Positions 405 to 25,680 of a stretch of 25,721 bases of DNA are shown piece after piece. The translations under genes and the position numbers were made by a program. The notes under the pieces were generated by a model that did not search any database, was not told the DNA's origin, and was given only the letters and a program-made list of their open reading frames with translations. Source of the DNA: a virus (taxonomy: Duplodnaviria > Heunggongvirae > Uroviricota > Caudoviricetes); IMG/VR virus record IMGVR_UViG_3300012942_000033, positions 99,512-125,232 of that record. One strand, given 5' to 3'. Position 1 is the first letter of the stretch; each line of letters opens with the position of its first letter.

Positions 405-668
405 ATGGGGAAGCATTATAATGACAATGGTCGCGATATTCGTAAGCGTGGCCTTGCCATTGAAGTCAAGCCAGCACATAATCCAGAGCAGGCATTGAGG
501 AATCTGGATAGTGCCATGAAGACTCTCAAGCGCCGAGTGGTTCAAGAGGGTTTGATCCGCGATATGCGTCGTAAGGAATATGCGGAGACCAAAGGTCAGA
601 TTCGTCGTAAGAAACGACAGGAGGCGGTGCGTCGCCAGAAGAAAAAGAACCGCCAGCCGGTTACATGA
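405..668 (+). CDS. rpsU: phage-encoded ribosomal protein bS21
   Basis: Translation has the S21 pattern: ...EQALRNLDSAMKTLKRRVVQEGLIRDMRRKEYAETKGQIRRKKRQEAVRR; AAGGAG RBS. Confidence 0.88.
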   Translation: MGKHYNDNGRDIRKRGLAIEVKPAHNPEQALRNLDSAMKTLKRRVVQEGLIRDMRRKEYAETKGQIRRKKRQEAVRRQKKKNRQPVT

Positions 669-2059: not shown

Positions 2060-2220
2060 AACCAGAACCCTTGTAGATCAGAAGAGTGATTTGCGAAGGG
2101 TTCTGGTTCTCCTTCATCGGTGCTGCGGTTTCGATGTCGCGCAATCACAGAGAAGGTGTGTAACTGAATCGCGCCAAACCAGATCCAGCGCAAGAAGCTG
2201 GAGCGAAATCGTAAACCTTC
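2060..2220 (+). ncRNA. putative structured RNA between the structural gene and its terminator
   Basis: Perfect 13-bp stem AACCAGAACCCTT (2060-2072) / AAGGGTTCTGGTT (2096-2108) with an inner stem; further stems TCCAGC/GCTGGA and GAAGGT/ACCTTC. Confidence 0.4.
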
Positions 2221-2222
2221 TT

Positions 2223-2247
2223 GGCGGGCCTTAGTGCCCGCCTTTTT
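2223..2247 (+). terminator. intrinsic terminator
   Basis: GGCGGGC-cttagt-GCCCGCC then TTTTT. Confidence 0.85.
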
Positions 2248-2344
2248 CATGATCCTTCCTATTTTGACATTCTGGTGAAGAGTACGTTACCAGAATCTAA
2301 CAAGGTGCGCAAAGCATCCAACAATAAGAGCCTCTGGAGGGGCC

Positions 2345-3208
2345 ATGGCACAAAAGACTTTGGTCATCAGACCATCAGACATTCCAGCGTTCAGAGATGC
2401 GATTGCTCATAACTACAAGGTGGTTGCCGAGCAGATTAGAACTCATCGGTTCTGTGATCAGGATTACTACTTCGTAAGATTGATCAACGGCGTATTCAGC
2501 TTGGTTCCTCCTGGATCTCATGATGCTGATTTAGTTAGAGCTTCCAATGACTACATTGCTGGTGCATTGGTTGGAGCGCTTCCTTATTCAGATCTTCATG
2601 GTAGTGATGGCATCAAGATTGATGAATGTGGTAATATCCGAGAAGTTGAATTGAAGCTCTGTATGAAATCAGGCGATCGCTATGAGATCAATACGAAGGG
2701 TCACATTCAGGTCGTAGATGGCGCGGGTAGCTTCAGGAGTGATTGTGCGGCTCATTTTGAGATCGTTTTCAACTTGAGTAAGAAGTGCGTAGATACCTAC
2801 CTTGTATGTTTTGATAAGTCAGCTTGGCGACTTATTGATATCTACAAGATGGCTGGTGAGAAGATAGTGGAACTGCTAGGTAAGAACCAGAATAGCGGAG
2901 AGGATAAGACCTCGAAGAAGCGCTCAATCAGTCTATCAGCATTCATGAAATATGGCCAGAAGGTCTATCAGGATGTTACCGAGGAGGTAGGTGTAGAAGC
3001 CTGGGAGCATGACATCTATCGGCGTTGTGGTCGTCATCCATCCGAGGGTGAACCGTTTTGGAATGATGAGAAGAAGGCCAAACTTCGAGAACTCTATGAG
3101 AGCGGGTTGGCTATTGGTAAGATCCGAGTTATTCTAGGTGCATCAACGGATTCAGCGGTCAAGTCACAGGTTAAGAAAAACAAGATTCGCCGCCCGGCCA
3201 AATCGTAA
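2345..3208 (+). CDS. putative PD-(D/E)xK-type endonuclease with a C-terminal GcrA-like HTH
   Basis: SDGIKID...EVELK catalytic-like motif; C-terminal WNDEKKAKLRELYESGLAIGKIRVILGASTDSAVKSQVKK resembles the GcrA N-terminal domain (WTDERxxxLKKLWxEGLSASQIAxxLGGVTRNAVIGKVHR). Confidence 0.5.
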   Translation: MAQKTLVIRPSDIPAFRDAIAHNYKVVAEQIRTHRFCDQDYYFVRLINGVFSLVPPGSHDADLVRASNDYIAGALVGALPYSDLHGSDGIKIDECGNIREVELKLCMKSGDRYEINTKGHIQVVDGAGSFRSDCAAHFEIVFNLSKKCVDTYLVCFDKSAWRLIDIYKMAGEKIVELLGKNQNSGEDKTSKKRSISLSAFMKYGQKVYQDVTEEVGVEAWEHDIYRRCGRHPSEGEPFWNDEKKAKLRELYESGLAIGKIRVILGASTDSAVKSQVKKNKIRRPAKS

Positions 3209-3258
3209 TTGACTCACTGGCCAATTGGTTGTTAAGTGAAGACCAACGAGGAGATCCA

Positions 3259-3552
3259 ATGTCTACAGACCTTTCAACAGACACTCTGGTCAAGCTGAAG
3301 GTGCCGAGCCTCTACAAGGTCGTGCTCTTGAACGATGACTACACCCCGATGGATTTTGTGATGCAGGTCTTGGAGGAGATCTTCAACAAGACTGCGGCAC
3401 AGGCCCAGGCGCTTTGTATGGAAGTTCACCAGGCCGGTAAGGGTGTCGCTGGCATTTACAGCAAGGAAGTGGCTGAGCAGAAGGTCTATGAGGTCAACAC
3501 GGTTGCTCGTTCATACCGTCATCCTCTAAAGACGATTGCTGAAGTGGCCTAA
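3259..3552 (+). CDS. clpS: ATP-dependent Clp protease adaptor ClpS
   Basis: PSLYKVVLLNDDYTPMDFVMQVL...EVHQAGKGVAGIYSKEVAE...HPL signature; ATG at 3259 after GAGGAG. Confidence 0.93.
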   Translation: MSTDLSTDTLVKLKVPSLYKVVLLNDDYTPMDFVMQVLEEIFNKTAAQAQALCMEVHQAGKGVAGIYSKEVAEQKVYEVNTVARSYRHPLKTIAEVA

Positions 3553-4124
3553 TGAATATTAACACTTTGGTTGATTGGCACCTCTATAACTATCTGGCGT
3601 TCCATGGGATGCTAGATAGCCAGGCTTTTGCCCATTTGAAGCGCCAGATTGATGAGGGTCATGATCTACAGGATCGCAAGAATATGGCTGGCCATGTGAC
3701 CTCCAGCTTTCTCCTGCTCGATCCAACCCTTACCAAGGTCCTCATGATTCATCATAAGGGCTTTGATAAGTGGCTTTGCCCCGGTGGTCATTATGAGGGC
3801 GATGTAACACCCAGAAAGAGCGCCCTCCGAGAGTTGACCGAGGAGACAGGTTTTCCGGAAGAACTGGTTGGCTATTTCGACCCTATGGGCTATCTACCCC
3901 TAGACATTGACACGCATGAGATTCCGGCTCGCCCAGAGAAGGGTGAGGGTGATCATTGGCATCATGATTTTCTCTACTTGGGTGTTGCCTCGGCTCTGGC
4001 TCCTCTGGTTCGTCAAGAGGAAGAAGTCAGTGGCGTTCTTTGGGTAGATATCGAAGACGCGATGACCTTTCCTGATACCAGGGTTCGCCGTCTTATGGCG
4101 AAAGTTTCTGAGCTTCTCCAGTAA
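3552..4124 (+). CDS. NUDIX hydrolase
   Basis: NUDIX box GGHYEGDVTPRKSALRELTEETGF; GHVTSS and HxHHDF motifs. Confidence 0.9.
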   Translation: MNINTLVDWHLYNYLAFHGMLDSQAFAHLKRQIDEGHDLQDRKNMAGHVTSSFLLLDPTLTKVLMIHHKGFDKWLCPGGHYEGDVTPRKSALRELTEETGFPEELVGYFDPMGYLPLDIDTHEIPARPEKGEGDHWHHDFLYLGVASALAPLVRQEEEVSGVLWVDIEDAMTFPDTRVRRLMAKVSELLQ

Positions 4125-24468: not shown

Positions 24469-24544
24469 GGGGGATTAGCTCATCTGGGAGAGCGCGTGCT
24501 TTGCAAGCATGAGGTGGTCGGTTCGAGTCCGACATTCTCCACCA
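24469..24544 (+). tRNA. tRNA-Ala(UGC)
   Basis: Full cloverleaf, G3:U70 identity pair, loop TT-TGC-AA, GGTTCGAGTCC, encoded CCA, 76 nt. Confidence 0.96.
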
Positions 24545-24619
24545 AGACAGAGCGAGGAAAGAAATTTTCTCGAAATGTCGAGAAAGTGCTTGACGGATCA
24601 TTCGACAGGCATAAATAGA

Positions 24620-24908
24620 AACACAGATGCCGCTTTTGGTATCACGAGTTTTGAAAGGTAGTTTGATTTCTATGTTACACCTAGGGACCCATATGGAATG
24701 TGGAAAGGCCGGCTTGAAAGCCGTATCCTTTACCACAGCCGCTATGGGCACCGAATGGTCGCAGCGTAGTGAGCAAATTACCCGCCCGGTCTATAAGCCA
24801 AATACGCTCGATAGCGCCGGGGCCGAACCAGATGGAGGAAGTGGTTTTTAACTGCTAGCACTCCAAGAAGGTTTTAAGGCCCCGGATCCGAAAGGTTCCG
24901 GGGCTTTT
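24620..24908 (+). ncRNA. putative ~290-nt structured RNA (alternatively a leaderless 74-aa ORF 24627..24851)
   Basis: TTGACG (24590) and TAAATA (24612) upstream, terminator downstream; nested stems CCCATA/TATGGG, TGTGG-AAAGG/CCTTTACCACA, CGGCT/AGCCG. Confidence 0.45.
24876..24908 (+). terminator. intrinsic terminator
   Basis: GCCCCGGA-TCC-GAAA-GGT-TCCGGGGC then TTTT. Confidence 0.85.
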
Positions 24909-24977
24909 CATTTCAACGCTTGCGGCTTCGGCCAACAGCACAGACGCAGAAGATTTTAGAGGTCGGCGAAAAAGTTG

Positions 24978-25006
24978 TTGACACGCTCTAAAAACCCTGC
25001 TAGAAT
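24978..25006 (+). promoter_or_regulatory. strong sigma70-type promoter of the tRNA cluster
   Basis: TTGACA n17 TAGAAT with GC extension; second TTGACA at 25078. Confidence 0.8.
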
Positions 25007-25340
25007 GAGATCGGACGGAGATGTGTTAGACACAACGACGTCTTCCGAAAAGCGTAGAAAGCTCTTCGGTTAAGAGATTGACAAACTTCTGGCGAAACGC
25101 ATAGCGTGGAGTTGGTTGTAAGTCAAGTGGCACATGCGGAACGCGACTGCGGGATAGCCACTCTAAATAAACCCAAATGGGCGGCGCCGAGGATGAAACC
25201 GGTGGTGAGAACACCGGGAGTAAAATTCAGACGCAGTGATTGCGTCCTAGGGCGAGATGAGACATGATGCTCTCATCGGCGGTCAACCCAGAAGTGCCTG
25301 GGAATATAGATCGCACATCACAAACAAAAGGCCAAATCAT

Positions 25341-25416
25341 CGGGGTATAGCGCAGGTGGTAGCGCGTTCGTCTGGGGGACGAGAGGTCGCAGGTTCGAAC
25401 CCTGCTATCCCGACCA
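25341..25416 (+). tRNA. tRNA-Pro(GGG)
   Basis: CGGGGTA/TATCCCG acceptor, A73, CCA; loop CT-GGG-GG; GGTTCGAACCC. Confidence 0.95.
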
Positions 25417-25431
25417 AACAAACTGTTTCAT

Positions 25432-25516
25432 TCCGGTATGGTGAAATTGGTAGATACGGCGCACTGTTAATGCGTTGCTGAAAAGCGTGGAGGTTCGAGT
25501 CCTTCTACCGGAGCCA
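25432..25516 (+). tRNA. tRNA-Asn(GUU) with a long variable arm (85 nt)
   Basis: TCCGGTA/TACCGGA, G73, CCA; stem GCGCA/TGCGT with loop CT-GTT-AA; 13-nt variable region TGCT-GAAA-AGCG-T. Confidence 0.88.
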
Positions 25517-25603
25517 ATAGGAGCGCTGTCATCCTCCTTCCACCGTTCGGTGAGGTGGTGTTCCCGCAAAAGCGCGGGGCTAACAAAGCGACAGCAAATT
25601 CAT

Positions 25604-25680
25604 CTAGGTGTGGCCCAATCAGGTAAGGCGTTCCCTTCGGGAGGGAGAGATTGGAGGTTCGAATCCTCTCACCTAGACCA
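25604..25680 (+). tRNA. tRNA-Pro(CGG)
   Basis: CTAGGTG/CACCTAG, A73, CCA; loop TT-CGG-GA; GGTTCGAATCC. Confidence 0.93.

Follow-up and report, generated by a model that had tools for sequence, protein, structure and literature searches.

A PvuII-like nuclease gene with a GcrA-like helix-turn-helix tail alternates with an unrelated HNH-like gene upstream of clpS in jumbo phages

What does a restriction-like nuclease with a GcrA-like tail do in front of the clpS gene of a very large phage? The question is raised by a 287-aa ORF on the + strand (2345..3208) of the 25,721-nt stretch of viral DNA analysed here, hereafter the window. A preliminary description had offered two answers: a methylation-guided nuclease whose tail reads CcrM-methylated GANTC, or a homing endonuclease that borrowed its helix-turn-helix (HTH). 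The window lies in a 125-kb virus record that is 27% complete and whose relatives measure 416-469 kb (~460-kb phages). An alphaproteobacterial host is likely, because the flanking genes match those of Sinorhizobium phage Phosso and Agrobacterium phage Atu_ph07. At homologous loci the order is rpS21, an ABA-sandwich gene, a 270-aa gene, a structured RNA, the nuclease, clpS and a NUDIX gene. The phage copies of ribosomal protein S21 (window 405-668), clpS (3259-3552, + strand) and the NUDIX hydrolase (window 3552-4124) are conserved across the clade.

The ORF is preceded by a GGAGG ribosome-binding site (2336-2340, + strand) and has 14 full-length homologues at 39-78% identity. Compared with L001 and L003, synonymous sites are saturated and pN is 0.24-0.35 across the nuclease part. 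On account of these homologues and this constraint, 2345-3208 is a genuine gene under purifying selection. An HMMER search of cluster representatives gave a family set of 62 proteins; identity of the nuclease protein among close phages is 19-57%. The nuclease domain, searched singly or as alignments, had no significant match in Pfam, PHROGs or PDB sequences, tblastn found no homologue in named phages, and a GTDB scan restricted to close-family patterns found no close bacterial copy.

The nuclease domain (aa 1-232; 2345..3040, + strand) was modelled within the full 287-aa protein by AlphaFold2 with a mean pLDDT of 86.8. Its top fold match is R.PvuII (Z 9.0, rmsd 3.5, 134 residues aligned; Foldseek E 1.7e-3, prob 1.0), followed by the BisI-family enzymes NhoI (Z 7.7) and Eco15I (Z 6.4), with I-Ssp6803I and RecU-type resolvases lower at Z 5.3 each. 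Atlas searches agreed with a PvuII/BisI-like fold, and the restriction-endonuclease-like α/β core is present in the model. The canonical active site described in work on the BisI family (PMC11347163) maps to D69 (2549-2551), D88 (2606-2608), E102 (2648-2650) and K104 (2654-2656), all on the + strand, which are predicted to be catalytic and are conserved in 58/62, 61/62, 61/62 and 61/62 family members, respectively. In the model, D69 lies in helix 67-76, D88 just ahead of strand 89-92, and E102 and K104 on strand 98-108. The hallmarks of PD-(D/E)xK enzymes are thus in place, namely an acidic residue in the core helix, an Asp at the start of strand 2 and (D/E)xK on strand 3. The SDG...EVELK stretch, taken earlier as such a motif by eye, is borne out by this conservation and by the match to PvuII. 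Identity as a PD-(D/E)xK DNase is well supported, and DNA cleavage is the activity predicted from it.

Two copies of residues 5-232 were predicted to pair with a score of 0.65, against 0.01 for the best control, with at least 70% of contacts agreeing between runs and pLDDT of at least 85. The mark applied is reached by 20/30 solved homodimers and by 1/23 single chains. The nuclease domain is therefore probably a homodimer in prediction, and this pass may stem from its likeness to PvuII/BisI dimers. The best fold match, the GxD...ExK layout of the active site and the predicted homodimer are what the protein shares with R.PvuII (PDB 1ni0, 1f0o; Pfam PF09225). It differs in sequence (~14% identity, no Pfam hit), in a longer N-terminal helix and the C-terminal HTH, and in being phage-borne and exchangeable, with no cognate methyltransferase nearby.

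The C-terminal tail (aa 239-287; 3059..3205, + strand) forms a three-helix HTH on a GcrA-DBD/Myb-like scaffold, with helices at 241-252, 257-264 and 269-278 and no β wing. Residues 239-286 matched the Pfam GcrA profile with E=2.8e-4 and 21.7 bits, and the tail alone scored 26.1 bits, both below the cut-off of 26.9. The match covers only positions 3-50 of the 155 in the profile, and the σ70-interacting C-terminal domain of GcrA is absent. Structurally, the tail aligned with the GcrA DNA-binding domain at Z 7.4 (5yiu) and with an rmsd of 0.9 over 42 columns (5yiv), without gaps over 44 residues; Myb/SANT, Tc3 and resolvase HTHs came next at Z 6.0-6.6. GcrA is thus the best match in both sequence and structure, which confirms that the resemblance to its scaffold, seen by eye in the preliminary description, is beyond chance. 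The HTH module may even descend from a GcrA-like protein. The fusion of a nuclease with a GcrA-like HTH is likewise upheld by the models and the homologues, and the two-domain architecture is real. The tail is found in ~16/62 family members, which fall together in a single region of the nuclease tree, and is missing from ~46/62, including some in the same genomic slot. Given this restriction to one sub-clade, the tail appears to be a late addition to the family. In two other, GcrA-like proteins, P0046 and P0056, 4-6 tandem N-terminal HTH copies precede a GcrA C-terminal domain, and the last copy alone resembles the canonical GcrA recognition helix.

Whether the tail also reads DNA as GcrA does is a separate matter. 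In the crystal structures of Caulobacter GcrA (PF07750), the methyl groups are held by R33/N34/I37 and N34/G38, the bases are read by R33, N34, I37, G38, H41 and R42, and function suffers when I37E, G38Y or G38W is introduced (PMC5887438). K39, together with H41 and R42, contributes base and backbone contacts. Across the tailed homologues the residues W3, L14, G18 and A35 of the scaffold are kept, and T32 is likewise a kept scaffold residue. At the reading positions the protein has D269 for R33, S270 for N34, K273 for I37, S274 for G38, Q275 for K39, K277 for H41 and K278 for R42. Among 15 tailed homologues, R33 and N34 are each kept in 1/15, I37, G38 and H41 in 0/15, and K39 and R42 in 4/15 each; the I37 position holds K/Q/S, and the pocket and base-reading positions vary within the family. 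Judged from these residues, the surface with which GcrA reads m6A-GANTC is missing from the tail. The preliminary description had itself named a C-terminus lacking the m6A-pocket residues as grounds for giving up its methylation-reader reading, and this is what we found.

Sinorhizobium and Agrobacterium have CcrM and GcrA. A tail that steers the nuclease to CcrM-methylated GANTC in host DNA would suit phages whose relatives infect these genera, and DpnI already joins a PD-(D/E)xK domain to a methyl-sensing HTH. We nevertheless consider such a role very unlikely. Besides the replacement of every pocket and base-reading residue, with only the scaffold retained and I37 turned into K/Q/S where I37E impairs GcrA, most family members do without the tail, and in sister phages the whole ORF is replaced by an HNH-like gene. 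The same scaffold also recurs elsewhere as tandem repeats whose recognition helices are mostly off the GcrA motif. GANTC is indeed plentiful, as had been noted, with 107 sites in the window (0.90 of expectation), and it occurs at 0.76-0.98 of expectation in eight genomes, alike in carriers and non-carriers of the nuclease. Full-length GcrA was not found in the contig itself or in 5 relatives.

The linked cognate methyltransferase of type II restriction-modification systems is absent, and no methyltransferase adjoined the nuclease among the called genes of 12 neighbourhoods. An orphan N4/N6 DNA methyltransferase lies ~40 kb from the nuclease in G002 (460742-461551, L145); it is not a close CcrM match, and its type was not found in G001 or Phosso. 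Among 4-6-mers, none showed depletion specific to nuclease carriers, and GCNGC frequency gave no signal. GTAC (0.37) and TGCA (0.40) are strongly avoided in the contig (G000) and, to varying degrees, in its relatives. We rejected this avoidance as a self-target signature, as phages carrying the HNH-like gene show it too, and it probably reflects host restriction systems. With GTAC and TGCA avoided by both carriers and non-carriers, and GANTC equally frequent in the two, no short self-site is betrayed.

When we collected relatives through the flanking genes rather than through the nuclease, the slot often proved to contain another gene. None of the 11 close relatives has an empty slot, and no decayed copy was seen. 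Its alternative occupant is a 263-294-aa protein with HH...CxxC/H motifs, which stands alone in L009 (7119-7991), L010 (9966-10847) and L132, and behind a ParB-like gene in L013 (8154-8945) and L014 (8144-8947). Its HNH identity rests on these motifs, on Atlas features and on weak but concordant fold matches to the HNH domains of Cap5, Cas9, TagI and McrA (Z up to 4.0). The HNH-like family is uncatalogued and alternates with the PvuII-like nuclease gene. In the ParB/DndB-like genes (weak DUF6551; L013 7201-8157, L014 7200-8144, Phosso gene 557), we recognised the first half of a two-gene cassette that travels with a cysteine-less HNH-like gene. The CxxC cysteines are lost in the members from L013, L014 and Phosso (gene 558).

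A second group of phages has the slot ahead of hsp20-tk-clpS, flanked by an 85-aa gene. There it holds the PvuII-like family in L019, L021, L023, L025, L083 and L142, the HNH-like gene in Phosso and weakly in L126, and two other ORFs in Atu_ph07. The position of the nuclease is thus intergenic, and on both sides of it are genes that related phages have conserved, either RNA and clpS or the 85-aa gene and hsp20-tk-clpS. In the complete genomes checked, the two genes never occur together: G001, G003, G004 and Phosso lack the nuclease family and each has the HNH-like gene in the slot, and G002 has the nuclease and no HNH-like copy. Of the distant family members, one follows mre11/sbcC-like genes, as read from motifs, and another lies beside a SegE GIY-YIG gene.

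We compared the history of the slot with a midpoint-rooted backbone tree that covers 11 phages, omits duplicates and second-group loci, and was built from S21, ClpS, NUDIX and the 270-aa gene. Four sister pairs carry opposite alleles, namely window/L009 (98/99), L011/L010 (100/100), L004/L014 (96/96) and L024/L013 (83/85), and at least 4 allele changes fall on this tree. The nuclease tree conflicts with it, grouping the window with L001/L003 and L011 with L024. Both a sporadic distribution and lateral movement relative to the backbone are therefore present. At the DNA level, the window tracks L009 in the RNA and up to and including the -35 box, L001/L003 over the 5'UTR and the ORF, and L009 again at clpS. 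Its RNA is 87% identical to that of L009, a phage with the HNH-like gene, versus 61-62%, and its clpS is 83% identical, versus 65-71%. The exchanged unit is a promoter-to-promoter cassette upstream of clpS, and its 5' boundary falls between the -35 box and the 5'UTR. The downstream flank (3209..3552, + strand) opens right after the stop codon with a TTGA box, invariant in nine loci, and continues into clpS; the 3' boundary falls here, and the region is a candidate for the target. No co-conversion tract was visible in clpS or the RNA, the flanks following the backbone with third codon positions largely saturated. The exchange events are old. Computationally, the comparison demonstrates that the nuclease gene has repeatedly been swapped with the unrelated HNH-like gene among the ~460-kb phages.

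Upstream of the cassette lies a conserved structured non-coding RNA of ~165 nt (2087..2254, + strand), present as a single strong copy per genome and ending in an intrinsic terminator (2223-2250, + strand). The same RNA occurs in L001 (7729-7900), L009 (6870-7033), L019 (4713-4885) and other relatives, and was not detected in Phosso. Its folding z is -5.4 with the 5' hairpin included, and covariation is strong, 16/28 pairs showing compensatory changes in an alignment that was fitted to the model. Rfam returned no family match, and none of the 6S, SRP and HDV-like ribozyme layouts, compared by eye, fitted. By eye, too, ~2152-2158 pairs with 2216-2222 in an extra long-range stem, whose crossing of helix 1 points to a pseudoknot. 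A long inverted repeat (window 2060-2109) lies immediately 5' of the RNA and overlaps its probable promoter, and the hairpin is kept in several relatives despite sequence change. The terminator that the preliminary description had assigned to the nuclease gene is real and ends this separate RNA. The promoter described as the gene's own is probable, and promoter and ribosome-binding site together span 2264..2342 (+ strand): TTGA of the -35 box TTGACA (2264-2269) is conserved across relatives, the -10 is weak, and a σ70 consensus scan did not call it.

An RNA that directly precedes the nuclease in every close relative that has one could be a dedicated partner, whether guide, antitoxin or scaffold. 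We give this idea hardly any weight. The same RNA stands ahead of the unrelated HNH-like or ParB-like genes in L009, L010, L013, L014 and L132, and L021, L023, L025, L083 and L007 have the nuclease but not the RNA. In sequence the RNA tracks the backbone and not the nuclease. As it precedes either nuclease and is mostly undetected beside the nuclease in second-group loci, the RNA counts as a neighbour, perhaps a target, and not as a partner.

Our preferred reading, at about even confidence, is a free-standing, homing-endonuclease-like mobile gene. In a co-infected cell, the dimer would make a double-strand cut at a long site within or close to the slot region of a related phage that lacks the nuclease gene, the candidate regions being clpS, hsp20, the gene for the RNA and the rival allele, and repair from the uncut genome would copy the cassette into the cut phage. 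The HTH, acquired by one sub-clade, would be an accessory that docks in the major groove and, as in I-TevI, either raises affinity or makes the site longer, and would not read m6A-GANTC in the manner of GcrA. We favour homing because precedents exist for intergenic turnover and for this fold. The free-standing homing endonucleases of T4 have conserved genes on either side and their cut sites at a distance of hundreds to thousands of bp (PMC2988022), unrelated endonuclease genes turn over at one locus in ICP1 (PMC10448857), and I-Ssp6803I, which uses a PD-(D/E)xK domain for homing, is especially similar to PvuII (PMC3384342). Opposite alleles in sister pairs and conflicting trees are typical of selfish spread. 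Of the two roles proposed at the outset, the nuclease with a borrowed HTH acting in homing thus fits the fold, the exchangeable slot and the sister pairs, and the methylation reader is not supported. Several observations count against homing all the same: no target site was found; the slots of all 11 close relatives are occupied and no decayed copy was seen, which also fits a useful function; the flanks differ between phage groups (RNA/clpS versus 85-aa gene/hsp20); no co-conversion tract was seen, third positions being largely saturated; and the HNH call of the rival gene draws on motifs and weak matches. PvuII-type dimers, moreover, usually recognise short palindromes.

The almost always filled slot, in the Phosso-like group as well as the close relatives, together with the lack of a target or decayed copy, keeps a serious if less probable rival in play. 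The nuclease may be an accessory DNase that degrades the host chromosome or excludes competing elements, the two alleles being non-orthologous solutions under balancing selection. Self could be told from non-self through DNA modification sensed by the catalytic domain, as in BisI and DpnI, or phage DNA could be physically protected. The modification-dependent NhoI and Eco15I are the next-best folds after PvuII and work with no sensor domain and no methyltransferase (PMC11347163), a virus-encoded m6A-dependent nuclease, HhiV4I, exists (PMC11037411), and the lack of site avoidance is also consistent with modification dependence. The fold by itself is no proof of methyl sensing, however, since PvuII, which is not methyl-dependent, scores higher, and the motif here is E-x-K rather than the Q-x-K of NhoI and Eco15I. 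Other ORFs occupy the slot in Atu_ph07, and the repeated swaps between sister phages speak for selfish spread. A narrower version, in which a PvuII/BisI-like dimer cuts methylated host or rival DNA, a re-tuned HTH adds a different specificity and the HNH-like gene is a functional analogue alternating at a dedicated jumbo-phage locus, strikes us as improbable. Less probable still is a structure-specific nuclease, a junction resolvase or branch cutter in phage recombination or replication. RecU-type resolvases do appear in the fold lists (Z 5.3, other rows weak), a dimer is predicted and one member follows mre11/sbcC-like genes; PvuII, however, scores clearly higher, and the gene is too patchy and fast-evolving for a core recombination enzyme.

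Of the nearest known counterparts, the BisI-family enzymes (NhoI, 8q5n; Eco15I, 8q5m; PMC11347163) share its PvuII-like fold and orphan status, and differ in having QxK where E102 is kept here in 61/62 members. I-Ssp6803I puts a PvuII-like PD-(D/E)xK fold to homing (Z 5.3) but, unlike the slot nuclease, is intron-encoded, cyanobacterial and tetrameric (PMC3384342). Seg, Mob and I-TevI nucleases combine a nuclease with a DNA-binding module and are sporadic and intergenic between conserved genes (PMC2988022), homing being a prediction here; the free-standing T4 enzymes are GIY-YIG or HNH, unlike the PD-(D/E)xK nuclease of the slot. DpnI, a weak Foldseek row (E 0.026), and HhiV4I share the concept of a nuclease with a helical DNA-binding sensor (PMC11037411), but theirs is a winged helix, whereas the three helices of the tail come with no wing. 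The family, with at least 60 sequence clusters and a nuclease domain that neither Pfam nor PHROG models, represents uncatalogued PvuII-fold nucleases of jumbo phages. Natural forms with and without the HTH offer a way to see how the target of a restriction-like dimer becomes longer, and homing, if true, would make the slot a clear example of competition between two unrelated nucleases for a single locus. The rival allele is present in Phosso, a phage in culture, which makes the question testable.

In some relatives, namely L004 (5080-7698), L010 (7077-9668) and L011 (7082-9706), an inserted tail-fibre-like gene of ~870 aa (Mtd_N/Collar) separates the 270-aa gene from the RNA. This insert is absent from the window, at whose end four tRNA genes lie (24469-25677).
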